NCBI GenBank assembly: GCA_000004985.1
Contig: GG738845.1
Reading direction: 5' to 3' (one strand)
DNA: 64,000 nucleotides
Source: Naegleria gruberi
Lineage: Eukaryota
This document shows, piece by piece, positions 24,700 through 49,285 of the stretch; the stretch's first letter is position 1, and each line of letters begins with the position of its first letter. Both the position numbers and the translations under genes were made by a program. Below the pieces are notes generated by a model. That model did not search any database and was not told the DNA's origin. It saw nothing but the letters and a program-made list of their open reading frames with translations.

Positions 24700-25728
24700 A
24701 TGAGTCACAAATATCAAAAGGATTTCTCTCTGCCCAATAACTTTCAAGAGACTTTACGGGACTTTACTAGAGAGGTTTTAAGATCTCAACCTGGTAACAT
24801 TTATCGATTTGGATATGATTATTTTATGAAGCTGGCTAAGGAAATGGGAGAAAGTACACCTGTGGTTACTGCTGGAAACAATGCCTCCAAAGTTAATGAG
24901 GAGGAACCAGAACAAGAATACAAGGTTGTACATACAAATAATAATGATTTACATACTTTGGATGAATCTCTGAACGCTAGTAGTATTAAACCAAACGAAG
25001 ACGACTACCAAAATATTTCCAGCATTTCCATACAAGATAAACCTGTGAGCATTAAATCTCAAGACAAATTCGAAGACAATGATGTCGAAGAGGAGGGTGT
25101 AGATGAAGATCCAGAAGGTGGTGCAAATTCTGCTTTTGAAGGAGACATGCTCCAAGCTATTGTACAAATTTCAGACCAAGAGCTTTTAAATATTATCTAT
25201 AATCAATTAAGCTCGTTCGGATATGAAAATCTTCCTATGGATGTCATTAAGGATGAAATCAAAAAAGTTTTCAACTATCAACTCCCTGAAGCAATCATGC
25301 TCTTTGTTATGGCAGAATCAGAAATTTCAGAGGATGGTACAATTGAAATTGGTCAATTCTCTCAACAAGTGACAAATGTTTTGAAAACAATTGTGGGAGT
25401 AGAGTCGTTTATGGAAGAAATTAATGTCAATGAGGCCGATGTTGTTCATGGACTCAACAAGATGGAACTGGATGAAGAATTGAAGGCCATTTTCGAAAGA
25501 GCTGACGAAGGCCAAACAGGTGCCATTTCATTCGCCAAGTTCAGAAGAGAATTGTTGGAAGCAGACTTGGACCTTTCTAGAAGAGAGGTGAATATTGTTC
25601 TCTCTGAGGCTGAGTCAGATGAGCATGGTCAAGTTCTGTATGAGAAGAGTATTAATAGTGCTCACAGACTTTTATTCATTGCAAATATGTTTGATGATTT
25701 TTGTAATGAAAATGATTTACATTTCTAA
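24700..25728 (+). CDS. Protein with an RIIa (PKA-RII/Dpy-30-like dimerisation-docking) domain and a C-terminal EF-hand-like region, resembling flagellar radial-spoke or AKAP-binding proteins
   Basis: The N-terminus PNNFQETLRDFTREVLRSQPGNIYRFGYDYFMKLAKE fits the RIIa consensus. The C-terminal ADEGQTGAISFAKF looks like a degenerate EF loop. An E2F-like motif lies 30 bp upstream of the ATG. Confidence 0.55.
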   Translation: MSHKYQKDFSLPNNFQETLRDFTREVLRSQPGNIYRFGYDYFMKLAKEMGESTPVVTAGNNASKVNEEEPEQEYKVVHTNNNDLHTLDESLNASSIKPNEDDYQNISSISIQDKPVSIKSQDKFEDNDVEEEGVDEDPEGGANSAFEGDMLQAIVQISDQELLNIIYNQLSSFGYENLPMDVIKDEIKKVFNYQLPEAIMLFVMAESEISEDGTIEIGQFSQQVTNVLKTIVGVESFMEEINVNEADVVHGLNKMELDEELKAIFERADEGQTGAISFAKFRRELLEADLDLSRREVNIVLSEAESDEHGQVLYEKSINSAHRLLFIANMFDDFCNENDLHF

Positions 25729-25921
25729 TTGGATCATTTAAAATTATTGTACATTTATAAAACTAATATTAACTAATTGATTTAATCTCAATGTTATTTG
25801 AACGACCATCATGACAAGAAAATGAGGAGATTTTACTTTTTCAAAATTTTAACGTTGACTTCCAATTACTGGCTAATAGAAGATTTCATTTGAATGTAAA
25901 TAAAAATAAATTTTAAAAAAA

Positions 25922-26695
25922 ATGAACTCTGCTGATCCGTTCGACCTGGTGAAAGACAAGGTCAGAGAAAAGCTGGCCTCCATCAAAGTTTTACAGGAGA
26001 TGTATATTGATCCAACAAGTCAAGAACAATGGAGAGGAATAGAAACCGAATTACAAAGTAATATTAAATCGGTTGATTTATTTTTGGGGGATCTGCAATC
26101 AACAATTGATATTGTAGAGAAGAATCCGCAACGTTTTAAAAACATTTCAAAGGAAGAAATCGGAAAACGTAAATTATTTATTTCGACAACATCACAACAA
26201 ATGAGACAAATAGAACAACAAATTAAAACTAGAAAACAAAAACAGCAACAACAGAAAAAAGAAACCTTGCTGACAAACGACGAGGATGAACAACCAATAC
26301 AACCAAAACCAACAGGAAAAGGTTCATCAAAATATTCTAGATTGGAAGAATCATACATTCAAGATAATCAAAAATTTATCGACCAACAATTACAAGTTCA
26401 GGATCAAGTCAAGAAAAATCAAGACCAACAATTGGATAAGATGGCAACTACTGTTCAACGTGTTGGGCAAATCGCTCAAGATATGGGTGATGAACTCGAT
26501 GAACAACACAGAGAGTTGGAGGATATGGAGCAACATGTCGATAAAACAAAAGGATTATTGGAAAGAACGAATAAGAGATTGAGCAACATGTTAAATAATA
26601 CCTCTGATAAGTGGAAAATTATTATCATTGTAACTCTGATTGTTGTGATTTGTATTTTATTTGGCTTGTTATTCATTCCAATTAAATTTAATTAA
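25922..26695 (+). CDS. Qc-SNARE of the syntaxin-6/Tlg1 family
   Basis: There is a syntaxin-6-type N-terminal domain, a SNARE heptad segment with a central Gln (QLDKMATTVQRVGQIAQDMGDELDEQHRELEDM), and a C-terminal TM anchor IIIVTLIVVICILFGLLFI. Confidence 0.7.
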   Translation: MNSADPFDLVKDKVREKLASIKVLQEMYIDPTSQEQWRGIETELQSNIKSVDLFLGDLQSTIDIVEKNPQRFKNISKEEIGKRKLFISTTSQQMRQIEQQIKTRKQKQQQQKKETLLTNDEDEQPIQPKPTGKGSSKYSRLEESYIQDNQKFIDQQLQVQDQVKKNQDQQLDKMATTVQRVGQIAQDMGDELDEQHRELEDMEQHVDKTKGLLERTNKRLSNMLNNTSDKWKIIIIVTLIVVICILFGLLFIPIKFN

Positions 26696-26714
26696 ATAAA
26701 TCAATTGTACATTT

Positions 26715-29700
26715 TTAAACAATTTCTGGTTTATCATTGACTGTTCTGTGGTGGGTTAAGGTTTGTCCAATTCCAACTGAGCTAGAGGTACCTGCTGTAA
26801 TCGGTTGACCAATGCTTGTTTGATCCTTTTCATCTGTGAAACTAGTACCCATATTTGTTTGATTTTTAAAGTTTCTGCCACTCTTATTTCCACCCTTTGA
26901 TTTGAACAATTTTCTTACAATTAAACAACAGCAACAAATAAAGCAAATCACACCGACAATAATAGCGTCATAAACATAACGATTATATCGAACATTATTG
27001 TAGTGCTCCATCAATTCATCAATATAGAGGAATGGATTTTCTTCACTGTCTTGTAATTCAAATTGGGATCTATTTGGGAAGTACCAATTGTAAAAGTTGT
27101 GTAACATTTCAACAACCTGTTCATTTGGTTTGGTTTGATTCATATCATCATTCAAACAAATGAATTTAGGTCTGTTTCTTCTCAATTCGTCCAATTGATC
27201 TCCAACTTTATCTTCATCATCTCTAATCATGTGGAATCCTACTTGAGATAAATCTTCCAATGTAAATGGAAAACGTTGTTCGCTCTTGTGTGCCTTTGTT
27301 TTAACAATATCGCTTAGGCCACTATTAACAAAATCTTCAAGAATTGGTTTAGTTCTGAATGCAGAGTCATCCATTGCTTGATATCGTGACAATACAAGCC
27401 TTGTATAATTGAGATGGCCATACAGGATATTTCTTACTGTTTGATGATACTCCTTAAATTCAGAAAAATCTTCAAAATAGGACCAAGATTTCCACTTCTT
27501 GTTACTCTTTGTACTGGCCCAGAAATAGGAACCAAATTCATCATCTTCTGAATTTTTTGTACTGTTTGTTGTTGCAGTTGTGTTAATAGGTGATGTACTA
27601 ATTTCTGGTGTTGGAGTCTTCTTTTTGCCCTTCTTAGTTTTCTTTTTTGGTTTTTCTAATCCTCCTCTTTCCTTTTTCATTTCATCATTAATTGTATTAA
27701 TACTAGATGTAATATTGGTATGTAAATCAGTTAATTTGGAGAGAGGTATCTTGTACTTGTGATACATCAAGTTAGCTAAATTTCTAATTTCATAATTATC
27801 CAAAACATTATCATTGTTTGTATCAACATGTTCCCTCAAAAATCTAGAGACATTATAGTGAATACCTTCATGCATTAAATAGTAGAAATAGGTAAATGTA
27901 TACTGCATATCACTTGAGGATCTAAATCTATTGGATGATGTGACATTGAATTCATATTCCCATTTCTTTTGAAGTTCGAACATAATGTCCCTATCAATCA
28001 TGTGAGGCATGTGAGCTGGTACCTTACGAGAGGCCCTACCATATTCTCTATTCAACAACTTATTCACATGAATTAAACTATCTCCAAACTTATCGAGGAG
28101 TTTTCTACCGATTCTAACAGGTGTGGAGCTTTCTGTGGTGACGCTGTTACTGCTGTCATCATAGTTTTCACTCTTGATTTCTCTTTCAATTCTCTTTTTG
28201 ATATTTTCATATTTTTCTTGATTCTTTTCCTTTTCTGCTAGATTGAAACGGAGGGAATTAACAATTTCTTCAGGATGAGATTGAACAATAGGAATTCTGT
28301 TAGAGTATGATGGTCGAATATTTGATGGAGACGAGATGCCCAATAACTTTCTGTTTTTCTTTTTTAACAACTTTTTCAAATATCTCAATTCATCACTATT
28401 GAGATTATCGATATTATAATTGTCGGCTTCTTGAGTTGGAGACTTTTCTGGTGTTTTAGGAACTTGCTGCTTCTCGGTTGCAATGACTGGATTGGTTTTG
28501 ATAACATTTTCAGAGATGTCATCAATTTCTGTTGCCTTTTCTTTTTGTTTGGTTTCTGTCTTGATATCAACAACTTTTTTAGTCAAATCATCTTCAATCT
28601 TTTTAGTGACAGGTTTGATTTCAGTATCCTTTTTAGCTTGTATAGTGTCGAGTGTACTAGTTGGGGTTTCTTTGGTGACAGTTTCCAAAGTATTCTTCAT
28701 TGGTTCAGTTTTCTTTTCCTCCAATTTAACTTGAGCTTTTTTGGTGTCAATAGATGCAGGACGAACAGCTTGGTTTTCAGTAATGACTGGATTGGTTTTG
28801 ATAACATTTTCAGAAATATCGTCAATTTCTGTTGCCTTGGTTTCTAACTTGGATCCAGATTGTTTCTTGGTATTTGTAACTGACTTGTCATTTTCTTGAG
28901 TATCAGAATTGATATTGTTCCAACTATTAAACCAATCAGTTTCAGGAGTTGTCTTGGTGGCTTTTTCTGCAGGTTTGGTGCTATTGTTCTTTCCAACAAT
29001 AGCATTAAGCTGAGTTTTAGAAAAGTAGGTAGAAACCACCAATGCCTTATTGTAGTTCTTGTCAGCTGCTAACTCTGATTCTTGTGATTCATGAATACCA
29101 AAAATGCTTGTTTCATTTGATAAGTTAAATTTTTTGGCAATGTAATTGAATGTATGATTTGAAACAACCTTTACGATGAAAGATTTTGTAATTGTCAATT
29201 TAGTGCCCAATTGTTCAAAAGTAGTGGAGTGAGTGTTTTGGAATGTATCAGTTTTGGAGGTATCATTAAGAACTCTCTCAGCTTCCAAAGAAACCGGGAC
29301 ATGTTCTTCATAGAAATTGGTATTGTTACTGTACTTGGTAACATTGGACTTGAGAGATTGATAATTAAAAGTGAATATGAGGAGCTTTTCCTTTTGTGAA
29401 ATTGTTGAACTTCTAACTAGCTTTTCATTTTCGTGATTGCCATTAGTAATTTGAGCATCTTTGAATATCTTACTCAAATCCAAGTAAATGGAAGGTTCTA
29501 TATTACGGACATAGATAACTGAAATGCTATTTTCCAATTGTACATGCTCCAATTCTGTCTTTAATTCCTTAAACTCGCAATCTCCAGCATCATAACCACA
29601 TTCTTTAACGTTACATGGTCTATCACAAAAACGATCACCAATCCATGAATCAGAACAAGAGGCTGAGCAATAATTCTTAGTATTAGTGGATGACCAAAAA

Positions 29701-31285
29701 CTATTAGAATTACTACCATAATTATAGTTACCACCATAGTTGCCATAACTTGATGAAGAGCTTGAAGATCCGTAAGAGAATCTCACATTTGGACCAACGC
29801 AATCACCACCATCAAAATCACATTGAGTAACATTGCAAGAAACGTCACAATAACCATCACCTAACCAAGATTCTTGGCATCCTTCATGGCATGGAGGAAC
29901 TTCCCAACTGAGGAATACTTTTTGTCCAGTTGAGTGACTATAAAAATCCTCTGGATACACATCGTTACCAAACATGACATCATCATTCAAGTAAATAAAC
30001 TTTTTAGAAAGGCCAGGAATTCTATGAATTTGAGATTCAATAGAAGGTGAGCTGAAAACTGGTAAATGGATTGGATTTCTGTAAACATCGGCATGTTTAA
30101 CAATTTTAACCTTTGGATTCTTTACGTTTAACCAGCTTGGCACTTGACCACTTGTCACAATATAAACATTTCTGACCCATGGAGCAAATCGTTCCAAACT
30201 ACGTAAACTGTATCTCAACTCATCATTATCTCTAAATCTGTTACTACTATTGGTATCATCAGTTTTGGTAGCATTCTTAGTTGTTGTACCATTGTTGATA
30301 ATTTCTGAGTCATTTTTAACTTTAGGAGTATTTTCCTTCTTTGATTTCTTAGTGGTCTTTTTTGTCAAAGCCTTGTTAGTTTTTGCTTTCTTTCCAGTGG
30401 CACCCTTTTTTTCAACCTTAGTATGTTGTTGTTTGGTAACTGGTGGTTTGGTTGTCTTTTTTGATGAATTGGTTTTCTTTGTAACAGGTGCTTTAGTCTT
30501 TTTGGTTACTTTGGCATTCTTATTGGTTTGAGGAATTGATTTCTTATTAGTTTCTTGTTTCTTCTTGCTTGTGGATTTCACAGAGAGTAATCTTCTTCTC
30601 TTCTTTGTTTTGTTTTCTTGTGTTTTCACATGTGCATTTCCTACTCCTTTCAAATGGTAATTATTGGTTGTTTTCTGATTGGATTTGCTAGAATCAGTAG
30701 TACTAGTAGTAGTAGTATTGGAAGACGTCTTGGTAGCAGCACTTTCAATTGTTTTAGTATTGTCAACATTAGATTTTTCTTCCTTCTCCTTTTCCAAAGC
30801 ATTAAATCGTTTCACTAAATTCTTGTGTATTGGATCGGAACCATTGACCCAAGTATAAACAATATCCATAGGTTCATAACACAATTTAGAAACTGAATTA
30901 ATTTTCATAATATTATCTCTATACATCCTATTACAATAATTTCCCAATTGTGATGCTTCATCATCCTATATTAAATATTTAAATAAATAATTTAAAAATT
31001 GAAATGTTAAAATTATTGAGAATAAATTCATTCGCATTATTATAAACTTACCACAAGGGTAGTCTTATCAGTGATGGAAATATCCAAAATAGATTGTAAC
31101 AAGTGCAATGCCGTATTTAAAGTAATAAATGTAATAATAATCAACAATATAGCACCCCATTTAGATGTTGCAAAGGAATAGAATGAACGTTGAATAGACT
31201 TTGAAAATTGATCATTAAAACAGGAACAACATTTCTTTCCTCTCTTATGATCCAATCCGACATTAGCAGTCGATGAGGGTAACAT
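26715..31285 (-). CDS. UDP-GlcNAc:lysosomal-enzyme GlcNAc-1-phosphotransferase alpha/beta homolog (GNPTAB, Stealth family). Two exons, 31052..31285 and 26715..30965, with an 86-nt intron.
   Basis: Stealth CR1 is DIVYTWVNGSDP. CR2 and CR3 are ELRYSLRSLERFAPWVRNVYIVTSGQVPSWLN..FIYLNDDVMFG. There are two Notch/LNR repeats, CHEGCQESWLGDGYCDVSCNVTQCDFDGGDC and CSASCSDSWIGDRFCDRPCNVKECGYDAGDC. CR4 is VPAHMPHMIDRDIMFELQKKW, and a C-terminal TM segment is present. The first exon encodes the N-terminal signal-anchor WGAILLIIITFITL and ends at a GTAAGT donor. Splice frames match ORFs 31040..31285 and 26715..30947. Confidence 0.85.
28481..28845 (-). repeat. Internal direct duplication inside GNPTAB, two ~70-nt copies about 290 nt apart
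   Basis: The segment aatgactggattggttttgataacattttcag(a/g)(g/a)at(g/a)tc(a/g)tcaatttctgttgcctt occurs at about 28481-28552 and again at about 28771-28845. Both copies encode ..KATEIDDISENVIKTNPVI... Confidence 0.75.
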
Positions 31286-31645
31286 ATTTTCCGATTCAAA
31301 AAAAGCAAAATTCTCTCTTTAACAACAACCTTCTTCTCTGTTGTTGTTGTTGTTTTCTTTAAAATAGTGTACGTTTACTCAGAGCAGTGTCTCCTTCGAC
31401 TACTTGGATGACACGTGTATGGTACGCCGTGTGAGTGTGGATTTCTTTTTTTTAATGGAGTTTAAGTGAGTGGATATACAGGAGTTTCAATTTGAAACGG
31501 TGAAGAAATAATGATACAATGATACAATTGAATCTACTTACAAGCTTGTTAACTCTCCTCTAGAAACATTCATACAAACAATTTTATTGCATCAAATAAT
31601 AATACACTGTTCAATAATTATTCAATAAAATCAAAGAAGAAAAAA

Positions 31646-33393: not shown

Positions 33394-33993
33394 CTAGTCA
33401 TCCCACGACGACTGTTGTTTTGGAACATTCTCAAAATCTACTTCCTTATCATACTCATATCCCTCATCACCAGGTCTGATAACGTTGAATTTCTTGTCCA
33501 TCTCTGCCTTTACTCTCCTTAGGGTGACATCATCTAGCTTGTTCAAGTCTTTCTGTTGTGTTTCACTGTCTTCCTCATCCTCGTCAAAGTTATCGTCATC
33601 ACCTTGGTGATGGTACTTAGAGGTTGTATTATTGGTATTTGGGGAAGGTTTACTTTGGTTTTGTATAGATTGAGGCCTATTATCTGGAGGTAAAAATGAT
33701 TTTGTAGTAAAATCGACCAGTTTTCTGATCATTTTTGTAGTTTGATTTTCTGGAATGTGGGAGGCTAAATTCTTATGGTGCTTCATCAGGACATTAGACT
33801 TGATGTGTTCAACCAATTCATCTTCCTCTAATTCCGGATAGTTTTGTACAATGTAGTCTTCCAAGTAAATTTTTCGATGTCTGAGTTCCTTCTTTCCTTT
33901 CTTTGAAATTGTTGTATATTCAATTACGAGAGCACATAATTTCAATCTAATTCCAATTCTTAAAACATTTACATCATCGTTATTTGAGGGCAT
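33394..33993 (-). CDS. CEP19-like centrosomal/ciliary protein
   Basis: The 199-aa ORF contains DLNKLDDVTLRRVKAEMDKKFNVIRPGDEGYEYDKEVDFENVPKQQSSWDD. This closely resembles human CEP19 [42 protein letters not shown]..SCGWD, and the N-terminal IRL..LVIEY segment matches as well. Confidence 0.65.
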   Translation of the reverse strand: MPSNNDDVNVLRIGIRLKLCALVIEYTTISKKGKKELRHRKIYLEDYIVQNYPELEEDELVEHIKSNVLMKHHKNLASHIPENQTTKMIRKLVDFTTKSFLPPDNRPQSIQNQSKPSPNTNNTTSKYHHQGDDDNFDEDEEDSETQQKDLNKLDDVTLRRVKAEMDKKFNVIRPGDEGYEYDKEVDFENVPKQQSSWDD

Positions 33994-34171
33994 TTTTTTT
34001 GTAGATTTTTGGAGGCAAAAATTTCGTTCAAATAAGCTTCAGTGCTACATTAAGGGAGCCTAAATATGGTAAAAACAATTCTTGTTTGTGGAAAAATTCT
34101 TCTTCTTGAAACCTATAACATGCAATATGTGTTGTTGATACATCCTACAAAGTAGTGAAACATGCTTGTTA

Positions 34172-34867
34172 TTATTCTCTCTCTGTATTATTCAATATGT
34201 ATTTTAAGGAGAGAGGATAGAAATTCTCAAAGAAATCATATTTTCTATAATCTAGATAATTGTGGGGCCACTTATCAATTCCAATCTTTTCCTTGATCTG
34301 ATAAAATTTTCTTTTAAGAGTTGATAAACTACATCCAAGAACATTGCATGCTTGCTGTTGAGTAAGATGCAAGAGACGTATCATCTCATCATCTGTAATA
34401 CTATCCACACTTCTTTTTCCTCTTTTTCCAATCATGGATGCATCGACTCGAATTATGGAAACATGTTGATCCTTTGAATAATTAAAATATGAATTCTTAT
34501 GAACATCTACTGGGCTTAACATTTGATTTTCCATGAATGTATAAACAACTTGTTCAAAGGGTTTTTCGCTAGTATTCGAACTATTGGAATCTCTATTCTT
34601 CATTTCGTACTTTCTTTTGATTTTTTTAGTTTTTTTCACTCCACCAATCCTGAATTTCGACATGTATTCGAATTGTGAGTTGGATGTTAAGCATGTGTCA
34701 TCAACATCCTCATGCACATGCATGCCATCCGTTGTCACATTAGCAGATGTGTTGTACGCAGATTCTGGTGATGGTAATCTCATACTATTGTTGTGTTGGT
34801 GTTGTTGTTGATTTCCCCTATTAATGTTTAAATAGATGTTATGGTTTGATGTTGTTTGATGCATCAA
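34172..34867 (-). CDS. RWP-RK domain transcription factor
   Basis: The C-terminal ITDDEMIRLLHLTQQQACNVLGCSLSTLKRKFYQIKEKIGIDKWPH matches the RWP-RK domain, with a KWP variant of the RWP triplet. The N-terminus is Q/N-rich. Confidence 0.55.
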   Translation of the reverse strand: MMHQTTSNHNIYLNINRGNQQQHQHNNSMRLPSPESAYNTSANVTTDGMHVHEDVDDTCLTSNSQFEYMSKFRIGGVKKTKKIKRKYEMKNRDSNSSNTSEKPFEQVVYTFMENQMLSPVDVHKNSYFNYSKDQHVSIIRVDASMIGKRGKRSVDSITDDEMIRLLHLTQQQACNVLGCSLSTLKRKFYQIKEKIGIDKWPHNYLDYRKYDFFENFYPLSLKYILNNTERE

Positions 34868-35855
34868 GGCTGCGGAGGAGGATGTTATATTGGCTAGTGT
34901 TGAGATTTGTAGATGGATTCAAAAGCTCTGAGTACTCCATTGATGTGAAGTTGTGTTTTTTGTTGGTTTTTAATGATGGCAATGACTAGAAGAAAGAACA
35001 TAGATGAGCGAGTAAAGCTCGTCAGTGTAGATCGTTCGTTATTGGTTGGGAAGTTTTTTTGTTGTGTGTTGTTGGTGGTTCAAGGGTTGATTTCTTTGGA
35101 AAGAATAGACCTTTACTGGCCCAATTTATTATCGTTGCAACACTGGTTGAAGACAGAGAGTGTCCTTGACAATTCCATCGATTATCTTTTGGGTAATGGT
35201 GTTTTTGTGGTTTGAGATAATTTTGTTTAAGAAACTAACCAATCACATTATTCATTGTAAAATACACAACAAAAATTGAACCCAAATCATGTTTCAGATT
35301 TCTTATTATCAAGCAATGTGATATGACAGAACTATTTATTAATAATTTACATAAAATGTGATTCAAAATTTAAAACTCAAGAAAGATATTCTTCATAGTC
35401 TTCCTTCGAACTGTTAGAGAGGGATTAATTTAGAGTGATGAGGAAAAGCTATAAACGAAATAAACAATCAAGCTAATGATGGAGAGGTAAATAAAATCTA
35501 TTTAACAAGTCCGATTATTAATTATTAAAATATAATTGTTATTAAATTATCAATATCAACAACAACACATACTCATCAAAATAATTTCCCACGGTTCCAA
35601 CATGTAGTTAACACTCATAATTTGATAGTGTTTGAATTTTCTCTGAAGAAAGCCGATCATCTTGTTGCAATTTTTTATTTGATTTTAATGTCCTTGCTGC
35701 GAAAGGCAAACAGAAAAGTTATCGTTGAAAGTAATATCCTCTATCACCCTTCAACTAATTGGATGATAGAATTGTCGGTTCATGTAAGGAACGAGTAATA
35801 AGAAGAGCAAGATATAAGTAATTGGAGGAAACAACATTAAATAGATGATAAATAT

Positions 35856-35866
35856 TTCCCGCCAAG
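35856..35866 (+). promoter_or_regulatory. E2F-like motif TTTCCCGCCAAG, 29-39 bp upstream of the GAS8/DRC4 ATG
   Basis: Seen in the sequence as aatatttcccgccaagtg. It is a perfect match to TTTCCCGC. Confidence 0.5.
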
Positions 35867-35894
35867 TGTTATTTACGAAAAAACATCAAAAAAA

Positions 35895-37295
35895 ATGAGC
35901 TCAAACCGAAGACCCAACAATAATAACACAGCACCTCCCCAACCCACAACAGCCGCTGCTAATCCAGCTGATGCTAAGAATTATGAAGAGTTGAAGGCGG
36001 AATTGGAGGAGACAAAGAGAAATAGAAATTACTACCAATTGGAAAGGGATAGAATAAATTCCTTCTGGGATATTACAAAGAAGGAAGTGGAAAATCTCAA
36101 GGGCGAGGTAAGGAACATGCAGAGGGAGATGGAAGAAAATGAAGAAAGACATCAGGTAGAATTAAAAGTGTACAAACAAAAAGTTAGACATCTTCTCTAT
36201 GAACAAAAGATCACCATTGATAGATTAAAAATTGAAAGTGAGAATGCTTTAAAGATCCAAGCTGATGAATTTAGGCAAAAATTAGCTCAATTGAAATCGG
36301 ATAAGAGAAAATTAAAAAGAGAACTCCACTCTATGGAAATAGCTTACCAAGAAGAAATCAAGGGGCTTAAAACGAATCAAGACAAAAACTTGACAAAACA
36401 AACTGAGACATTTGCAAGAAAACTTAAAGAGACCCAACTGAAATATGAAATGAAAATGAAAAAATTAAGAGAAGATTTAGAATTGAGAGGGAGAAAAGAA
36501 ACTGAAGAAATTGAAGAAAGAAAAAATACTCACATCAAACAATTAATGGAAAAACACAAACTTGCCTTTCAACAAATGAAGGATTACTATATAACTATTA
36601 CTAGAAATAACTTGGAATTAATCAAAACTCTGAAAGATGAAGCTGCACTGATGAAACAGGAAGAAGCAGACAATGAAAAACTCATGTTGGAAATTGCTCA
36701 AGACAATAAGAGATTGAGTGAACCTCTTGTTAAGGCTCTGGCAGAAGTTAAAAAGCTCAGAAATGAATTGGCCAACTACCAAAAGGACAAGCTATCTCTC
36801 AAAAATGCCAAGAGCAGGCTGGTCATGATGGAAGATCAATTGAAGAAATTGAAATGGGAACATGAGATTTTAGAACAAAGCCATAAGCAAGTGCACAGAG
36901 AACGTGACGATCTTTACGATAAGTTTGAAAAAACTATTCATGAAGTTCAACAAAAAACACTGTTCAAGAATCAAGTTCTTGAAACAAAGGTTTATGCACT
37001 TCAAGAAACTTTGGAAAAGAAGGATGCCCAAATTCATGAAATACTCAAAGCTTGTAACATAGATGAACACACAGCCGAAGAAATCTCTGAAGGTCTTGAT
37101 AATGTCATTGAAGAAAAGAACAACACGATACGAGAACTCAAATTTGAAATTGAAAAGATGAAGAAGAGTTATAATGATTTGATACGAGTAATTAATGCCA
37201 AGATGCAACAGTATGGAATTGAGGATGAGTTAGGTATTGAACCAATCGCTAACGTTGTTGATGAAGGTGTCCCAGGTAGAGTATGGGTAAAATAA
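35895..37295 (+). CDS. GAS8/DRC4, nexin-dynein regulatory complex subunit 4 (axonemal)
   Basis: Single 466-aa coiled-coil ORF. It contains RNYYQLERDRINSFWDITKK...EERHQVELKVYKQKVRHLLYE, close to the human GAS8 segment [41 protein letters not shown]. Collinear similarity continues through the C-terminus: KWEHEILEQ.., ELYDKF..IHEVQQKT.FKN.VLE.K. Confidence 0.85.
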   Translation: MSSNRRPNNNNTAPPQPTTAAANPADAKNYEELKAELEETKRNRNYYQLERDRINSFWDITKKEVENLKGEVRNMQREMEENEERHQVELKVYKQKVRHLLYEQKITIDRLKIESENALKIQADEFRQKLAQLKSDKRKLKRELHSMEIAYQEEIKGLKTNQDKNLTKQTETFARKLKETQLKYEMKMKKLREDLELRGRKETEEIEERKNTHIKQLMEKHKLAFQQMKDYYITITRNNLELIKTLKDEAALMKQEEADNEKLMLEIAQDNKRLSEPLVKALAEVKKLRNELANYQKDKLSLKNAKSRLVMMEDQLKKLKWEHEILEQSHKQVHRERDDLYDKFEKTIHEVQQKTLFKNQVLETKVYALQETLEKKDAQIHEILKACNIDEHTAEEISEGLDNVIEEKNNTIRELKFEIEKMKKSYNDLIRVINAKMQQYGIEDELGIEPIANVVDEGVPGRVWVK

Positions 37296-38209: not shown

Positions 38210-38212
38210 TTT

Positions 38213-41200: not shown

Positions 41201-41452
41201 CGTTTTGTTGCTGGCTTGTTCTATTTTCTTATTGTTGGATTTAGTTGTGTTCATTGGTTTGTTGTTACTATTCTTTTTAATTCCCGATGATTTTTCCATG
41301 GATGAAAGTAGAGAATCAATAGAAGATTTCTTCTCTAGAAAAAGTGTTGTAGAGAATAACCTATTGTTATTTCCAATCAGAGGCAATTTTCTAGAAAGAG
41401 GCAATCCCGACAAGGAAGCTACTACTGATGACTTTCCAACGAATCTCTTCAT
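38213..41452 (-). CDS. Rsm22/METTL17-family mitochondrial small-subunit methyltransferase-like protein with a long Lys/Glu-rich N-terminal extension
   Basis: The C-terminal half contains LDFGTGPGTTIWAAHEAFG (SAM-binding), then VVASFVMNELSNSQERERIV, then the Cys cluster ILAPCPHDSVCP..KWCHFAQRV typical of Rsm22/METTL17. The N-terminal ~550 aa are low-complexity K/E-rich. Confidence 0.65.
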   Translation of the reverse strand: MKRFVGKSSVVASLSGLPLSRKLPLIGNNNRLFSTTLFLEKKSSIDSLLSSMEKSSGIKKNSNNKPMNTTKSNNKKIEQASNKTKKKVSSEIPKSTTKLSNPQQPNTTTITNQKVTDGKNNMEEEDVVALVQKLRKEMKESRLKEAKELEKKKEESRKKDESSFKILVNKPKRDQIDTSSMPVAEYTTTKLQDKKFANLLQNKVNTEDDISKVVEWGIKHDVRYNLENILLPDMDSTPEEIEEKKKKKAELKKAYEDYVNSVPEEEEEKRGKEDISFKQFVNSITEEEEEDVERPKKQLPKNIEIVESDKLSSKPHKKTDLQKLSQRLSTVNKKPSSYEELAHKETMDSSKEKPEVDQNESSPTFSTTILNLTDEQYSNAMSNPVEFNKQWELKGYSPVIQNNHGRKILILYPIGTNTKKVVEKVKNATNKDQTKPLIVAGSKGRIPLRDLLVDESTKDEVDLESSNFDERDLEKKLIDAKNYFLEYGYDISDLNTILKDDEIIKKKKEKTQPKKIEKTTAYDKLQDELENEENETPISNLLDEYLGDDDPNQIFQSLEEKNLLLSEYETKSEYAMFSEDIHPYLKKSTKENEDKLRKEIANMSIGSISLPPELVEGVSEIVSEYPKNLIQRTAQILSAAFRLRTNGLDKNPKVFSRSDEEKKLNKDESPEDELFREQLEVLKHLRSYKETSKKKKRPIDIEKMKKDSEEEFNRTYNPQIIYKELESAAYIAHRLPAIYGTSYRVFSEAVMRMPDFEPKTMLDFGTGPGTTIWAAHEAFGGSVKEVMAVEPSTAMMDVASRLFEYMNNKPHITWRRFLNEHSSKQYDLVVASFVMNELSNSQERERIVKALWKLTSGVLIIIEPGTPVGFDFIREARSTVLTQKYININDKPTILAPCPHDSVCPMAGTPKWCHFAQRVEREEFQKLTKQAKKQYENENYSFIAFKRHGLDGFKYGEQVEKEEEEEMRKKQIREQLPDSVVEKEIALRKELRGYAREFSLQSFRWPRITDTPLKRGGHVITSMCLPEGTLSKVIISKADGKQGYKYLRKTLKGDLYPYPLNPKNLKASAEMEKYFKDLE

Positions 41453-41582
41453 TTTTTTTGATGTGAATATTGACTTGAAGAAATTATTGTAGAAAGTATC
41501 ACTCTAGGCCTTTATTGTCTTTGTCACATCTACTGCAAGGTGGAGCAGCTTGATAAAATACACAACACTGTTAATTTACAAT

Positions 41583-43382: not shown

Positions 43383-43557
43383 GATTAAATATTTGGGATA
43401 AAATGGTCAAGTCTTCAAATACTCCCCTATGCATCCTTTTGGTGATTTTCAACTTTTTTTGACCAGGTAATGTTCTGTTAACAATAAACATATGATGTTA
43501 TTATGTTTCAAATAATAAATAATATTATCCAATGGAACAAATAACATTAAATAAAAA

Positions 43558-44340
43558 ATGGACAGAAAATCATCATCAATGATGTTCGATCCAATCATCA
43601 CAACAGACGTCGATGACTTGGTGGAGGAAGAAGAAAACGATCAATTATTAGCAACAAAAACATGGAGAGATGAACTCTTCTTACGTTTTAGACCAATAGT
43701 TAATGAGGATACAGCATTGGAGTATTTTTGCAATAGATCAAACCCTTTCTATTCGAAAAAGTCTGTCAATGAAACACTCCGAATGCAACAAACAGGAGGT
43801 ATCATTGATAGGAATGCTCTCCTAGAATCAACAGAGGGTATTCGATATTCTGTTGACTCTAAACGATCAAAACCTCCTTCCCTCTTCATCATTAAAAAAG
43901 AGAAGGTGGAAAAGAAGGATAGGAATGCTCCAAAATTATTGAATTTGTACTATATAGCTGCGGAAGCTGGTGTTGTTTATCAGTCACCTTCTGTTTATGA
44001 CGTGATACAAGCAAGATCTTTTAATTCTCTTTCTCTGTTGAATCAAACTTTCAAGGAAATACAACCTCATGTTGAATACACAACAAATGATGTGACTGTT
44101 CTCTCTAGTCCATTAGCAAAAAAGGATGGAAACAAATCGGAGGAAGAGGATCGTTTTGTTGTTGCCAACTTACCTCCTTATTCTGTAGAGATGCAAAACC
44201 ATGTTTCCCGACTTATCGACCTGTTAGATATTGACACAAACACATTGATACAAAACAAACAAAACAAGAATGCCTTCCAAATTCAACCATCAATAGATCC
44301 AAATTATCAACAACCTGCCACAATAAAGGAAGAGCATTGA
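43558..44340 (+). CDS. Mediator complex subunit MED6
   Basis: LEYFCNRSNPFYS, PPSLFIIKKEK and LYYIAAEAGVVYQSPSVYDV match the MED6 signature segments LDYFSERSNPFYD, EPILFIIRKQQR and YYIIAGVIYQAP. Confidence 0.7.
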   Translation: MDRKSSSMMFDPIITTDVDDLVEEEENDQLLATKTWRDELFLRFRPIVNEDTALEYFCNRSNPFYSKKSVNETLRMQQTGGIIDRNALLESTEGIRYSVDSKRSKPPSLFIIKKEKVEKKDRNAPKLLNLYYIAAEAGVVYQSPSVYDVIQARSFNSLSLLNQTFKEIQPHVEYTTNDVTVLSSPLAKKDGNKSEEEDRFVVANLPPYSVEMQNHVSRLIDLLDIDTNTLIQNKQNKNAFQIQPSIDPNYQQPATIKEEH

Positions 44341-44385
44341 GAATTGAATTATTAATTATTTGAAATTTGAATAATACTTTAAAAA

Positions 44386-44868
44386 ATGTCACCACAAGAG
44401 GAAAGTGTGGAGGATAATTCTGATGATAATAGTGTTGATGATGATAATGCAAAGTCTGACACAACACACAACAGCAATGACACTATTGGAGGTGATGATA
44501 CAACTACCAATCAAGAGGATATCCATAGAAGAAATGATCGCTTGATGGCTAAACAATTCCGAAAGTCAGCCATCGAAACTATTGACGAGAAGAGAGAATT
44601 ATTTATTGAATATAAGAAGGAACAAAAAGGAAGAATGATTTCTTTTCTCACATGTATTTTAACAGATCCTCTTACCCCAATATTTAATCAATTCTTTAAC
44701 GAATATTTGACTCCGATCAACTTTTCAATCTTTGAGGGGATTCAAGCTGAACAAGTTAAGAAGCTCATAGTATCCCAAGAACAAATTGAAATGTTGCAAC
44801 ATGCCTTTCAGAAAGGGGATGAAGAAAAGAACATTTTTCAAATTCAAACAAAACCTAAAATGGAATGA
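44386..44868 (+). CDS. Hypothetical acidic protein of 160 aa
   Basis: ORF only. The N-terminus is D/S/N-rich and no domain was recognised. Confidence 0.3.
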   Translation: MSPQEESVEDNSDDNSVDDDNAKSDTTHNSNDTIGGDDTTTNQEDIHRRNDRLMAKQFRKSAIETIDEKRELFIEYKKEQKGRMISFLTCILTDPLTPIFNQFFNEYLTPINFSIFEGIQAEQVKKLIVSQEQIEMLQHAFQKGDEEKNIFQIQTKPKME

Positions 44869-45078
44869 TACAATTTTTCCCCATGGAAAAATAAGAGTTT
44901 TGTCAAATGTTGATTATATGAGATATTTAACAAGGGTATTATTTAAATCTCAAAAGGAAGAGATTGAAATCAATCATATTGTATGGACATTGAGTTTCAA
45001 TAGTAGTTACTGAAGAGTAGAGTACAAGAAAAAACCTCAAACAATCTTGAGAAGAATTATAAATGTAATAATTTTAAA

Positions 45079-45090
45079 ATCCCGCCAAAA
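45079..45090 (+). promoter_or_regulatory. E2F-like motif ATCCCGCCAAAA, 38-49 bp upstream of the ATG of the coiled-coil gene at 45128
   Basis: Seen in the sequence as aaaatcccgccaaaatt. Confidence 0.45.
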
Positions 45091-45127
45091 TTATTACATT
45101 TTGCACAAACTTTGACAAAAAAAACAT

Positions 45128-46291
45128 ATGGCCATCGCTACCTCTCCAAAGTCTTCAGTGCTAAAAGCCACAAACACAAGCACGGGAGCAACCTCAACTC
45201 CACCAACATCACATACATCCCCGAAGAGAAATAATAACAACAATAAGGATGGACAACAAGTGTTGAGGAAGATTTATAGGTGCGACTCTGAAATTAAACG
45301 TATGAAGGAACAAGATGAAAAGCAACTACGAATAGAAAGATTAAAACAAGTCAGACAAATGGCTATGGATATTGCAAAAAACAAGACAAAACAATATGCA
45401 CAAGCAAAGGAAAAGGAAAATCAAAGTAATTTGAAGGTAATCAAAAAAGCATGGGAAGAAAGAAAGGAAGAAGAGATTGATCAACTCCAAACAGAGTTGG
45501 ATTATGCTAGAAAAAAAGCTGGTGAAGCCAATAGGAATGCACTCCAATTTAATAAGGAATTCCATCTTCAACAACAGAAGAAACATGAGCAAAATAAGGC
45601 AAACGCTTTAATAGCTCAACAGAGGTTTGATAAATGTGTCAGTATTGTCAAACAAAGACAGGTCGAGAATCAAAAGAAAAAGGATAATCTCTTTGAAAGA
45701 ATTGAAAAATCAAAGAACATGGAATATCCAGAAATTGAGCCTGTCCACAATGGATATGAAAAGTTGTTTGCAGTTCCATCTCGTGACCTGAATGATGTAG
45801 TGGCTGGTTGGAATCCTACCAAAAAGAGAGAAGACCAGGGAATTTACGAGACGACGTTTAATCACCAAATGGTTTTAGAACCAACCTCACCAGAAAAGCA
45901 AACAGCTATTAAAGTTAATCAACATGTGGTCAAACATTTTGATAAACAGGCTGGTGTTGATGTAAATAATGAACAAGCCGAATTGACCTTAGAGGAAAAA
46001 AAGAGGACAGCTTTGCAAAGAGCATTTTCAGAAAAGAGATTTGCAAGAAAAGCCGCAGAAAAGGTGCGAAATGAAAAATTTAATGAGATTATTGTTGAAG
46101 AATTAGAACGAGTATCCAAAATTGATAGACAACTTAAAGTTGAGTCCATACAGAATCCTTCTAGAAATACTCTGGCAGACAATCAATACAAGAAGAAAAA
46201 GCAAATGGAACTGGAAAGAAAATTTGAAGAGCTCTTCAGAAATAGGGTCCATTTTGCAGATAAACCAGAAGAAAAGAGCAGTTACTTTTAA
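45128..46291 (+). CDS. Hypothetical coiled-coil protein, K/E/Q-rich
   Basis: 387-aa ORF. An E2F-like motif, ATCCCGCCAAAA, lies 38-49 bp upstream of the ATG. Confidence 0.4.
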   Translation: MAIATSPKSSVLKATNTSTGATSTPPTSHTSPKRNNNNNKDGQQVLRKIYRCDSEIKRMKEQDEKQLRIERLKQVRQMAMDIAKNKTKQYAQAKEKENQSNLKVIKKAWEERKEEEIDQLQTELDYARKKAGEANRNALQFNKEFHLQQQKKHEQNKANALIAQQRFDKCVSIVKQRQVENQKKKDNLFERIEKSKNMEYPEIEPVHNGYEKLFAVPSRDLNDVVAGWNPTKKREDQGIYETTFNHQMVLEPTSPEKQTAIKVNQHVVKHFDKQAGVDVNNEQAELTLEEKKRTALQRAFSEKRFARKAAEKVRNEKFNEIIVEELERVSKIDRQLKVESIQNPSRNTLADNQYKKKKQMELERKFEELFRNRVHFADKPEEKSSYF

Positions 46292-46295
46292 TAAA

Positions 46296-47006
46296 TTATT
46301 GTTTTACAAATTCTCCTGAATCAGTTTGGTCGTAATCTTCATTGAAAGTTGCATTGCCCTTATTGGAAGTAGTTGGTGCAGCTCTCACTTGCTCATTGGT
46401 TTCATAATACTTGACAGCTCTCTTGGAATCAACATAATTGAAAAGTCTTTCCATAATATCAGAATCCCTCCATCGTTCTGGTAATTTTTCTTTCCATTCA
46501 GGATCTTGTCTATCAGTTTCAGTTGCAATAAGCCAATTATACAAGTCACTGTCATGTTCACAGAGTAAATCATAAAATTCCTCAAGATCTGACCATTGAG
46601 TCATCTTTGGAACATTCTCTCTAGCAAAACCACCCAAGAAGAGTTCAGTTTCAACACGACCTCTATTTCTACAATACATGAGGATACGACGTTTTATATT
46701 GTCCATAAAAGCTTGTTCCTCTACTGGTGTCATATCTTTGATTGATTTTCCTTCTGTTACTGCCTTTTCTAAAATTTCATGAAAATATGGTGGACGGAAG
46801 TCTGGAATACTCTTGATAATCTCTTCATCAGTTAAATATTCTTCTTGTTGTTCATTTTCGGAAATGTCTTCTTCCGCATTATTATTTGAAAATTTAATAC
46901 ATTGTGTTGAAAAACGTGCCAATGAGAGATGATTAAAATTCTTGGTGAGAGGTATGTGGTTAAATTTCTTGATTGAGCAAAATTGATACTTGATTAAACG
47001 ATTCAT
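46296..47006 (-). CDS. Succinate dehydrogenase assembly factor 2 (SDHAF2/Sdh5, FAD-insertion factor) with an N-terminal presequence
   Basis: KRRILMYCRNRGRVETELFLGGFARENVPKMTQWSDLEEFYDLLCEHDSDLYNWLI matches the flavinator domain RR.LYESRKRGMLE..LL..F....M....L..YD.LL...D.D...W. Confidence 0.7.
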   Translation of the reverse strand: MNRLIKYQFCSIKKFNHIPLTKNFNHLSLARFSTQCIKFSNNNAEEDISENEQQEEYLTDEEIIKSIPDFRPPYFHEILEKAVTEGKSIKDMTPVEEQAFMDNIKRRILMYCRNRGRVETELFLGGFARENVPKMTQWSDLEEFYDLLCEHDSDLYNWLIATETDRQDPEWKEKLPERWRDSDIMERLFNYVDSKRAVKYYETNEQVRAAPTTSNKGNATFNEDYDQTDSGEFVKQ

Positions 47007-47160
47007 TTTTTTTTTAAATTGATAGTAAAATTAATTGAATATTTAATTTTCATTCTCCGAAATTTATTGGGTTAAATACAAAATCAAGAAATTGAAAAGA
47101 ATAATAAAGAGAATGAATTAATAAGGTTGGTGGTTAGTGTTTTATTGGTACAATTTATAT

Positions 47161-47628
47161 TTACTTTTGCATCATCATCTTGACGAATTCAGTATAGTTG
47201 ATTTGGTTATCACCGTCAATATCGGCTTCACGAATCATTTCATCAACTTCTTCGTCTGTGAGTTTTTCACCTAGGTTGCACATAACGTGTCTGAGTTCTT
47301 GAGCAGAAATGAAACCGTTTCCGTCCTTATCGAAAACTTTGAAAGCTTCCTTGATTTCTTCTTCGTTATCAGTATCCTTCATCTTCTTGGCCATCATTGT
47401 CAAAAATTCAGTGAAATCTATTGTTCCATTACCATCAGCATCAACTTCGTTAATCATGTCGTGGAGTTCTGCTTCAGTTGGGTTTTGTCCCAATGATCTC
47501 ATAACAGTTCCCAATTCGCTTGTAGTAATAGTACCATCACCGTCCTTATCGAACAGAGAGAAGGCTTCCTTAAATTCAGCGATTTGTTCTTCAGTTAATT
47601 CGTTATTGCTAATAGCTTCTCTACTCAT
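47161..47628 (-). CDS. Calmodulin of 155 aa with a 7-10-residue N-terminal extension, the flagellar CaM-1 type
   Basis: [72 protein letters not shown]... carries four canonical EF-hands. The ORF track begins at 47730 only because it treats the TTG at 47728-47730 as a start. The first ATG is at 47626-47628. Confidence 0.9.
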
Positions 47629-47719
47629 TTTGTATACAAGGGTCTTCGTTAGGGATTTTTTTAAGGTTATGTTTTTATTCGGTTGATGTATTGGCCAATT
47701 TATTGTAACTACAGTATTT

Positions 47720-47731
47720 TTTGGCGCCAAA
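47720..47731. promoter_or_regulatory. Perfect 12-bp palindromic E2F-type site, TTTGGCGCCAAA, in the divergent calmodulin / CCRK-like promoter
   Basis: Seen directly in the sequence. It matches the E2F consensus TTTSGCGC on both strands. It lies about 92 bp upstream of the calmodulin ATG. A second half-site, TTTGGCGC on the minus strand (gagcgccaaac), lies at about 47843-47852. Confidence 0.45.
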
Positions 47732-48257
47732 GATTTACAACGTTGTTTTCGTAGGCGAACTGGTTAGAAAGCGCGTCTTCTAGATTAATTGGCCTTTCAT
47801 CGCTAATCACACTCACTACAAAATTCAGAACCACAAGAGATGAGCGCCAAACAAGTGCTATCAGTGCGACAATTAGGAAAATAGCGAACCCTTAATGAAT
47901 GGAAGGTTATTATCTTCTCATAAACAATGATCACTTTATAAACCAATACTTTTTCTCATCAGCATATATGGTTTTAACATTGTTTTTTTTGAAATATGTC
48001 GTAATGGGTTATGGTTGAATACAGGTCCTACTACTAGTTCCTTATTGGATGTTTCCCTCATGTGGAAGTTGTGCCCCATGAGTTGAACTTTGTTAAGGTA
48101 CTTTGTCATCCCTATATTCACAACTTTTGAAGAGTGACCAATTGTTATCTTTGAGTATTGGTGGGTTTAAAAGGATGATTTTTGTTCGAACACGCTCATA
48201 CAATGGTTTCATACAAATGAATCAAAGAAGTTGGTTTTGTATGCAACAAAGTAAAAA

Positions 48258-49285
48258 ATGGCCACAAACTACTTGATGGAAAATTATACAATTATTGAGA
48301 AGATTGGTGAGGGAACATTCGGACAAGTATTAAAAGCAAAAAGGTAAGTAGTAAAAGGAAGATAATGATCTTTAATATAATTTAGGAAGGCTGATGGACG
48401 AGTTGTGGCCTTAAAGAAAATTAGAATTAGGAAACAAGAATTTGAAGACTTTCCGAAAAATGTAATTAGAGAAGCAAAAAGTCTTCAACATGTGTGCCAC
48501 AATAATGTCATCAAGTTGTATGATGTCTTTGTGAATGGATCATCTCTTGTTCTCTCATTAGAATTTATGAAAACAGATTTGGCAAGAATTATTAAAGCCC
48601 AAAGGACACCCTTCCTTGAGTCTCATATCAAATGTATAATGCTAATGATGTTAAAGGGTCTCCACAATTGTCACACCAATAGTATCATGCACAGAGTATG
48701 TAGGAAAGTGTAATTATTTAGAAATTAATTATGTGGAATTATTAGGACATCAAACCTGCCAACTTACTTTTCAATCACAACGGAGAGTTAAAACTGGGAG
48801 ATTTTGGATTGGCTACGTTGTATCTTGGAAAGAATGAATCTTACTCACATCAAGTTGCAACAAGATGGTACAGAGCTCCAGAACTTTTGTATGGAAGTAG
48901 ATCTTATGATTGTAAAGTAGATATTTGGGCAGCTGGTTGTGTCATGGCAGAATTGTACAATCTTTGTCCCTTATTCACTGGTGAAAATGATATTGATCAA
49001 TTATATAAGGTACTTTCACTTTTGGGAATTCCTTCAGAAAATAATTGGCCAGGAGTTTCCAAGTTGCCAGATTTTGGCAAGATAACCTTCTCGAAAATTA
49101 AAGTGAGAACGATCAGTGAACTAGTTCCAGGAGCTCCTGATTTGGCTCTTGATCTTATGTCACATCTATTAAGATTTGACAATGATGAAAGATATAGTGC
49201 TGAGGAGGCCTTAAGACATCCATACTTTTTTAGTGAACCTTTGCCTTGTGATTTTTCAGAGCTTAAATTGCCAAACAAGATGTAG
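48258..49285 (+). CDS. CDK20/CCRK-like cyclin-dependent kinase. Three exons: 48258..48343, 48386..48695, 48746..49285.
   Basis: The spliced protein is MATNYLMENYTIIEKIGEGTFGQVLKAKR|KADGRVVALKKIRI...NSIMHR|DIKPANLL..LGDFGLA..YSHQVATRWYRAPELLYG. The introns are 42 and 50 nt, with GTAAGT or GTATGT donors and a TTTAG or ATTAG acceptor. The sequence is closest to CDK20/CCRK in the PNxxxRE-type regulatory-helix region NVIREAKSL. Confidence 0.8.

Follow-up and report, generated by a model that had tools for sequence, protein, structure and literature searches.

Cilium-related genes and their arrangement

We analysed a window of 64,000 nucleotides from contig GG738845.1 of Naegleria gruberi NEG-M. 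Our subject is a group of five cilium-related genes between positions 24,700 and 49,285, together with a short E2F-like box that is found directly upstream of axonemal genes in this window and in related genomes. The window is AT-rich nuclear DNA (33% GC) with long open reading frames (ORFs) on both strands. Ten of its ORF translations are identical to entries of the protein collection, and 8 of these 10 are identical to deposited N. gruberi models; the models matched exactly by window proteins are EFC50466-50474, EFC50786 and EFC50789. For gene counting, the whole window was annotated with Pfam, which gives about 40 genes, about 16 of them within 24,700-49,285. Five of the latter are cilium-related, namely those for an RSP7-like protein, CEP19, DRC4/GAS8, the calmodulin CaM-1 and a CDK20/CCRK-like kinase. 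Beyond these five, the Pfam annotation reveals no cilium gene in the remainder of the window.

An earlier note on this DNA, made from the letters alone, had assigned it to a heterolobosean amoeboflagellate, had named the five flagellum/basal-body genes and had listed the mitochondrial genes IF3, Sdh5/SDHAF2 and Rsm22. The assignment was correct, as all proteins that we tested match N. gruberi NEG-M exactly. The three mitochondrial genes are present in the window, and all five gene identities stand at the positions given in the following. Nothing about the genes themselves is new; the cluster region is already annotated in the N. gruberi genome.

The RSP7-like gene (NAEGRDRAFT_61455; 24700-25728, + strand; 342 aa, exact match to EFC50467) encodes the RIIa/EF-hand protein that had been taken for a radial-spoke or AKAP-like type. 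It shows a Pfam RIIa domain at residues 14-48 (9.6e-10) and a weak EF-hand pair. Among solved structures, it matches Chlamydomonas radial spoke protein 7 (7jtk_M) best, with E=3.5e-26 and three matched stretches: residues 1-59 align to residues 1-64 of the Chlamydomonas protein, and EF-hand repeats are aligned as well. Among other RIIa proteins, Sp17 and PKA RII come next, at only 1e-3 to 1e-2. The protein is shorter than Chlamydomonas RSP7 (342 vs. 500 aa) and has fewer EF-hand units. An exhaustive HMMER search yields 141 representatives of the family at E<=1e-10, mostly 420-480 aa long and matched from their N-termini. Judged by these matches, the protein is a member of the RSP7 family, with a predicted location in the radial spoke.

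CEP19, a mother-centriole/basal-body protein (NAEGRDRAFT_56519; 33394-33993, - strand; 199 aa, exact match to EFC50786), is identified by its domain, since Pfam PF14933 is matched with 1.2e-42 at profile positions 2-151 of 151. GAS8/DRC4, subunit 4 of the nexin-dynein regulatory complex (NAEGRDRAFT_88226; 35895-37295, + strand; 466 aa, exact match to EFC50469), covers 200/200 positions of the Pfam GAS profile (4e-72). It matches Chlamydomonas DRC4 (7ju4_0) with 3e-128 across residues 33-461, i.e., over nearly its full length, and human DRC4 with 1.9e-103.

The calmodulin gene (47161-47628, - strand; 155 aa) encodes a protein identical to UniProt P53440 ('Calmodulin, flagellar') and XP_002683533, N-terminal extension included. 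It is thus the flagellar CaM-1 of Naegleria, as the earlier note had proposed. CaM-1 is located in flagella, and its mRNA is differentiation-specific, rising and falling with flagellar tubulin mRNA (PMC2114234; PMC2114796). Of the five genes, it is the one with expression evidence in the literature consulted. Being 'induced' is otherwise an unspecific label, since 6,389 genes shift more than 2-fold in expression according to a preprint (PMC10802493).

For the kinase (48258-49285, + strand; 311 aa), we use a model of three exons (48258-48344, 48386-48700 and 48746-49285, with approximate boundaries) and two introns of the forms GTAAGT...TTTAG and GTATGT...TTAG. No identical deposited model exists; the model was kept in view of 85% identity to N. 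fowleri CDK20 along 98% of its length. In a one-directional best-hit test, every named best hit from outside Heterolobosea bears the name 'cyclin-dependent kinase 20' (50-55% identity, 97-98% query coverage), and these matches come from flagellated lineages, chytrid fungi among them. The uniform best hits point to a CDK20/CCRK/LF2-like kinase, as had been proposed. Its orthologues, Chlamydomonas LF2 and mammalian CCRK, have a role in cilium length or assembly, which by orthology may be carried over to the Naegleria kinase.

The five genes are separate units on both strands, with spacers of 100-1000 bp and individual upstream regions. About 11 unrelated genes are interleaved, encoding a syntaxin-6 SNARE, a Stealth/LNR N-acetylglucosamine (GlcNAc)-1-phosphotransferase-like enzyme, an XRN-type exonuclease, an RWP-RK factor, a PLD-like enzyme, Rsm22, Med6, SDHAF2 and three unknowns. 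That is, the genes do not share a strand, are not contiguous and do not depend on one promoter, such that neither an operon nor a polycistron is present. This agrees with the earlier note, which had spoken of enrichment rather than an operon.

The same note had called the concentration more than chance predicts. We assumed a base rate of 450-800 cilium genes among 15,727 genes (3-5%), in line with the ciliome sizes of other organisms. Under this assumption, at least five cilium genes among 40 are expected with P = 0.005-0.05 and at least five among 16 with P = 6e-5 to 9e-4; a random 40-gene window holds such a 5-in-16 cluster with P = 5e-4 to 6e-3. Random placement predicts 0.3-3.4 such tight clusters per genome. 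These values are post hoc, i.e., both the functional category and the sub-window were picked after looking. As an empirical control, we used the 68 bystander genes within the loci fetched from related genomes, two of which are flagellar. The resulting comparison (5/40 vs. 2/68) is not significant (Fisher P=0.064). The statement therefore stands in its nominal form only, given that it is post hoc, depends on the base rate and is not confirmed against the bystanders.

With regard to gene order, the group is dispersed in the sister species. In N. fowleri, GAS8 is found on VFQX01000016, CaM-1 on VFQX01000052 and CDK20 on VFQX01000009; in N. lovaniensis, GAS8 and CaM-1 are located on two different contigs. 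When all region proteins and all window ORFs of at least 80 aa were compared by tblastn with the N. fowleri and N. lovaniensis loci (±10 kb), only the fetched gene itself matched. The genes called within ±10 kb of these orthologues are unrelated to window genes, apart from the CDK20-PROPPIN pair. A fourth Naegleria genome (loci L013/L014) shows the GAS8 neighbourhood of the N. fowleri type, and the RSP7 and CDK20 orthologues of Willaertia magna (L012 and L015) reside in unrelated gene contexts. The orthologue of a Naegleria-specific 599-aa gene of the region is in an unrelated context, too. As a positive control, the tail-to-tail CDK20-PROPPIN pair is kept in N. gruberi (48258-50340) and N. 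fowleri (L009:10001-13004), such that microsynteny can persist between the two species. For the five-gene cluster, we find no conservation of gene order beyond background.

Also the head-to-head arrangement of CaM-1 and CDK20 is derived, because TFIIA-gamma precedes CDK20 in N. fowleri and W. magna (L015:8203-11142), where N. gruberi has CaM-1. The N. gruberi spacer between the two genes (47629-48257) marks a rearrangement breakpoint.

These data bear on the idea that a co-expression neighbourhood is selected or maintained in N. gruberi, with one chromatin domain and a bidirectional CaM-1/CDK20 promoter. The nominal enrichment is what such a neighbourhood would produce, even more so when box-bearing unknowns are added, which raises the candidates to 6 of the about 16 region genes. 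Furthermore, CaM-1 and CDK20 are divergent, and their 630-bp spacer holds a palindromic box. However, the cluster is kept neither in N. fowleri and N. lovaniensis nor in W. magna, although CDK20-PROPPIN microsynteny is retained. CaM-1 and CDK20 are neighbours by a derived arrangement, and three species have CDK20 without the box. In addition, the region is interspersed with about 11 unrelated housekeeping genes, and each box-bearing gene has a box of its own. Given also the P=0.064 against bystanders and the number of such clusters expected by chance, we consider a maintained neighbourhood quite unlikely. A biologically meaningful concentration is not supported: the enrichment is nominal and the arrangement is not conserved in sister species.

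An E2F-like box upstream of start codons

Aligning the CaM-1 and GAS8 upstream regions of three species reveals a GC-rich box amid diverged AT-rich DNA. Respective sequences are TTTGGCGCCA (GAS8) and ATTGGCGCCA (CaM-1) for N. fowleri and N. lovaniensis, and TTTCCCGCCAAG (GAS8) and TTTGGCGCCAAA (CaM-1) for N. gruberi. This unexpected box, which the earlier note does not mention, is the feature that links most of the five genes. The core of the box is SSCGCCAA, and its full forms TTTCCCGCCAA and TTTGGCGCCAAA fit the E2F consensus TTTSSCGC.

Within the window, the RSP7-like gene is preceded by the box ATTCCCGCCAAA (24658-24669, + strand), with the core 39 bp upstream of the ATG, and GAS8 by TTTCCCGCCAAG (35855-35866, + strand), with the core at 37 bp. 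The CaM-1 promoter holds the perfect palindromic site TTTGGCGCCAAA (47720-47731), which ends 92-103 bp before the start codon of this gene, while the CDK20 ATG is about 530 bp away; a second copy near CaM-1, TTTGGCGC, is found at 47844-47851 (- strand). Two further boxes precede genes of no recognisable function. The first, AATCCCGCCAAA (45078-45089, + strand), has its core 47 bp before the start codon of NAEGRDRAFT_61464 (45128-46291, + strand), which encodes an orphan coiled-coil protein of 387 aa with no Pfam or PDB match and no homologue found outside N. gruberi. The second, TTACCCGCCAAA (6654-6665, - strand), lies outside the range covered by the earlier note, its core being 38 bp upstream of the ATG of a multi-exon gene (5114-6624, - strand). 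The 437-aa exon model of this gene has no Pfam or PDB match and no identical entry in the protein collection. At CEP19, we find a degenerate copy, TTTGCCTCCAAA (34008-34019, - strand; 15-26 bp upstream of the ATG), which has lost the central CG and is a weak candidate only; it differs by one mismatch from TTTSSCGCCAAA and is followed by TCTACAA, as at GAS8 promoters. For CDK20, the upstream stretches inspected (250 bp in N. gruberi, about 200 bp each in N. fowleri and W. magna) contain no box. The housekeeping genes of the window, roughly 35 in number, are all without a box.

These sites are more frequent than expected. TTSSCGCCA has 5 matches in the window vs. 0.16 expected, and TTTSSCGCCAAA with at most one mismatch has 5 distinct sites where 0.43 are expected. 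The latter 5 sites are all sense-oriented, lie no more than 103 bp before an ATG, and precede the RSP7-like gene, GAS8, CaM-1, the 5114-6624 (-) gene and CEP19.

A strict palindromic 12-mer as motif model fails in other species. As the sites are half-palindromic there, it was replaced by SSCGCCAA, for which we scanned both strands of 241 kb (the window plus about 177 kb of DNA from other species) with 146 gene calls. The scan yields 17 matches at 16 distinct sites, compared to 3.0 expected from first-order Markov simulations of the 241 kb. Thirteen of the 16 sites are located 32-123 bp upstream of a start codon, i.e., within about 4% of the strand-space, and the other 3 are inside coding sequence. 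This positional bias is significant both in the window (P=8e-7) and when orthologues are collapsed (P=2.4e-7). The 13 promoter-proximal sites belong to RSP7 (N. gruberi, W. magna and L011, a Naegleria-like RSP7 contig), GAS8 (three species), CaM-1 (three), an ODAD2-like gene, LC8 and the two N. gruberi unknowns. Here, ODAD2-like denotes an ARM-repeat gene whose best solved-structure match is ARMC4/ODAD2, a docking subunit of the outer dynein arm (8e-38), and LC8 is a dynein light chain; both genes are bystanders, picked up in loci that had been fetched for another purpose.

Thus, 5 of the 7 box-bearing orthogroups are axonemal structural components (RSP7, DRC4, CaM-1, ODAD2-like and LC8), compared to 2 of about 100 genes without box. 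The association of box and flagellar homology holds when the discovery genes are excluded (Fisher P=4.5e-4).

The box is also retained at orthologous promoters with diverged flanks in up to four genomes and two genera. The L011 RSP7 gene carries TTTCGCGCCAAA at -45 and that of W. magna GATGGCGCCAAAA at -38, which is the sole such site in 21 kb of DNA with 26% GC. Upstream of GAS8, N. fowleri and N. lovaniensis share TTTGGCGCCATC at -41, and upstream of CaM-1 ATTGGCGCCAC is conserved in both. That is, the box travels with its genes to different chromosomal contexts.

One could argue that the box arises from chance or base composition and plays no part in regulation, and the bare 7-mer core SSCGCSA is indeed not enriched in the window (8 observed vs. 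7.25 expected under a zero-order model). The case for the box therefore rests on its longer forms, position, orientation and conservation. With respect to these, the longer forms are 12- to 30-fold over-represented compared to dinucleotide shuffles, the non-palindromic copies are always in sense orientation, and neither the crowding of sites directly before start codons nor the retention amid diverged flanks, including the single Willaertia site, is what chance would give. We strongly disfavour this explanation and leave it very little probability.

At box-bearing promoters, some public gene models look wrong (L011:761-836, L002:16437-19144 and L004:16012-19335). For L011 RSP7, the public call starts at an upstream in-frame ATG located 5' of the box, while the true MSHKYQK start (ATG 836) follows TTTCGCGCCAAAA at a distance of 45 bp. 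In N. fowleri, the ODAD2-like model seems to lack a tiny first exon, i.e., an ATG directly followed by a GT intron, which would begin about 35 bp after the box.

A second short box, 5-20 bp downstream of the E2F-like core, may be an initiator or transcription start site element. It takes the form T[CT]TAC[AG]A at GAS8 (four genomes), CaM-1 (N. fowleri, N. lovaniensis) and CEP19, and the form [CT]TGTA[GA] at RSP7 (three genomes), N. gruberi CaM-1 and N. fowleri LC8. In the window, it is located within 24670-24690, 35867-35885, 47690-47715 (-) and 33994-34007 (-); further instances are in L002, L004, L005, L006, L011, L012 and L013. In addition, the CaM-1 5' leader is similar between N. gruberi (47629-47715, - strand) and L005/L006:9926-10000, where the tblastn match extends about 29 codons upstream of the ATG. 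This similarity may correspond to an RNA element that CaM-1 and tubulin mRNAs are reported to share. Finally, a palindrome TGGCGCCA at 61466-61477 is situated about 210 bp inside the coding sequence of a serpin (61259-62518, + strand; Pfam Serpin 9e-88) and is most likely due to chance.

E2F-type regulation as a candidate mechanism

The E2F family consensus is GCGSSAAA, which equals TTTSSCGC on the other strand (PMC4862756). Exact matches to TTTSSCGC are found at GAS8 and CaM-1 of N. gruberi, RSP7 of L011 and of W. magna, and GAS8 of N. fowleri and N. lovaniensis; one mismatch is present at N. gruberi RSP7, the 6.6-kb gene (5114-6624), CaM-1 of N. fowleri and N. lovaniensis, and LC8. The exact CaM-1 12-mer, TTTGGCGCCAAA, is listed as a motif of human E2F1 from high-throughput systematic evolution of ligands by exponential enrichment (HT-SELEX; PMC5449588). 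With regard to candidate factors, a curated table lists two E2F_TDP proteins and one E2F_TDP,DP protein for N. gruberi and the same numbers for N. fowleri (PMC8296547 Additional file 5). RFX, FOXJ1 and XAP5 are absent from Naegleria according to a 2025 review, such that its cilia genes must have other regulators (PMC12183034). Full-text literature searches found no paper that links Naegleria flagellar genes to an E2F-type element. The 1995 study of the CaM-1 gene by Fulton, Lai and Remillard in the Journal of Biological Chemistry reportedly describes DNA elements that this gene has in common with the tubulin genes; it may already contain the CaM-1 palindrome, without the E2F reading.

Taken together, the cluster is probably a neutral juxtaposition in the N. 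gruberi lineage, with axonemal co-expression achieved in trans via E2F-type boxes of the individual genes. The five genes are best read as independently transcribed in ordinary nuclear DNA, and their proximity not as a functional unit. Since a separate box stands within about 100 bp of the start codon of every box-bearing gene, physical proximity is not needed. Mechanistically, the promoter-proximal E2F-type box of each axonemal gene, 30-125 bp upstream of the ATG and probably placed at or just upstream of the transcription start, would give co-expression during the differentiation from amoeba to flagellate. One of the two Naegleria E2Fs, together with the single DP, would bind the box and would be activated or derepressed at the differentiation trigger. 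From the sequence evidence, we infer that the box is functional, bound by E2F/DP and a driver of differentiation-specific transcription. NAEGRDRAFT_61464 and the 5114-6624 gene are accordingly predicted to be co-regulated, which makes them candidate lineage-specific flagellar or differentiation proteins and, putatively, part of the flagellar programme.

A number of observations weigh against this interpretation. First, the sample is small (7 independent promoters, i.e., orthogroups), and the motif was found post hoc, from 2 of these 7. The bare core is not enriched, as reported above; the short core is also present at the three coding-sequence sites, and in L015 of W. magna, coding sequence holds the looser SSCGCSA three times in antisense orientation. 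Conservation is not uniform either: GAS8 of the fourth Naegleria genome has only a degenerate copy, TTTCCCTCGCAAAA, and the N. fowleri ODAD2-like gene carries the variant GCGCGCCAT. Moreover, CDK20 has no box in three species and the CEP19 copy lacks the CpG core, such that the box does not cover basal-body/regulatory genes. With regard to neutrality, at a true cilium base rate of about 2-3%, the tight 5-in-16 cluster is improbable per random window (P about 5e-4), which leaves some probability to a real neighbourhood effect in N. gruberi. Finally, the box may not be flagellar-specific, given that the sampled promoters include no cell-cycle genes.

The last point leads to the possibility that the box is real but not flagellum-specific and/or not bound by E2F, the axonemal association being a small-sample effect. 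It could be a cell-cycle E2F site at S-phase genes, as E2F sites classically mark G1/S genes in other eukaryotes (PMC4862756), or the target of an unrelated factor, for which Naegleria offers large lineage-specific transcription factor families (39 RWP-RK, 78 Zn-cluster and 38 Myb proteins; PMC8296547 Additional file 5). In line with this, 2 of the 7 box-bearing orthogroups are without recognisable flagellar homology, and the variants CCCGCCAA and GCGCGCCAT deviate from strict TTTSSCGC. However, the best sites (TTTGGCGCCAAA, TTTCGCGCCAAA, TTTCCCGCC) are exact E2F consensus matches, the box is absent from all of the roughly 35 housekeeping genes of the window, and the axonemal share among box-bearing orthogroups (5 of 7) is higher than that of genes without box, significantly so with the discovery genes excluded. 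We consider a box that is not flagellum-specific and/or not bound by E2F unlikely.

A broader version of E2F-type control states that both Naegleria and Willaertia turn on their axonemal gene set via an E2F/DP site, i.e., that E2F rather than RFX, FOXJ1 or XAP5 is the regulator of differentiation, in parallel to E2F4/5-Multicilin in vertebrate multiciliated cells. This parallel would then reflect either deep ancestry or convergence. We put this version forward tentatively, as a possibility that we rather doubt than expect to hold.

Among known systems, the E2F4/5-DP1-Multicilin (MCIDAS)/GEMC1 programme of vertebrate multiciliated cells is the closest known analogue; it uses E2F/DP outside the cell cycle for a burst of centriole and cilium genes (PMC12183034; PMC5839779). 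Both vertebrate multiciliated cells and Naegleria build basal bodies without division, de novo in the case of Naegleria. In vertebrates, direct E2F targets are mainly centriole-biogenesis genes plus FOXJ1/RFX, which then activate the axonemal genes. In Naegleria, in contrast, the box is found directly on the axonemal genes RSP7, DRC4, ODAD2-like, LC8 and CaM-1 and is absent or degenerate at CDK20 and CEP19, and E2F binding is a prediction. The X-box/RFX (and FOXJ1) regulons of animals and choanoflagellates are similar in that a short element near the start codon marks dispersed ciliary genes and can serve to predict further ones. The X-box itself is a GTTGCC-type inverted repeat. Sequence and factor family are thus different, and RFX and FOXJ1 are the very factors reported absent from Naegleria (PMC12183034). 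Eukaryotic co-expression neighbourhoods and bidirectional promoters resemble the region in the proximity of genes over tens of kb and in one head-to-head pair (CaM-1/CDK20). Unlike such neighbourhoods, the region lacks conservation in sister species and has many unrelated genes interleaved; unlike bidirectional promoters, the box is in the proximal promoter of only one member of the CaM-1/CDK20 pair.

The gene concentration itself is therefore of little import, since sister species do not share it and no special mechanism is required for it. The box, on the other hand, could matter. Naegleria is the classic system in which basal bodies and flagella are assembled de novo in a rapid, synchronous and transcription-dependent way, and the box provides a concrete hypothesis for the control of its cilia genes with named candidate factors (two E2Fs and one DP). 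If true, it nominates new flagellar genes, e.g., NAEGRDRAFT_61464 and the 5114-6624 gene, and offers a possible link to E2F-driven multiciliogenesis in animals.

Further features of the window

The unknown 599-aa protein of the region is restricted to Naegleria and matches neither the solved axoneme chains nor Pfam families. We considered it and the 387-aa NAEGRDRAFT_61464 as hidden flagellar genes based on homology, for which no support was obtained.

Between CEP19 and GAS8, an RWP-RK transcription factor gene is located at 34172-34867 (- strand), divergent from GAS8 with a 1-kb spacer. RWP-RK genes are also present in both Willaertia loci (L012:1-81 and L015:18390-18971), which is probably due to chance. 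With 39 family members known from N. gruberi (PMC8296547 Additional file 5), the adjacency to CEP19 and GAS8 is uninformative, and the gene was rejected as a local regulator.

Two long proteins of the window deserve mention. The GlcNAc-1-phosphotransferase-like enzyme (26715-30947, - strand; 1410 aa) combines Stealth CR1-CR4 with two LNR/Notch repeats, i.e., the domain layout of GNPTAB, and has long low-complexity inserts rich in K, T and S. The gene at 14263-18783 (+ strand) encodes a protein of 1506 aa that ends in a calpain protease domain (Pfam 1.6e-37) and has a long N-terminal part rich in Q and N; along this gene, a strong negative GC skew and a positive AT skew are observed.

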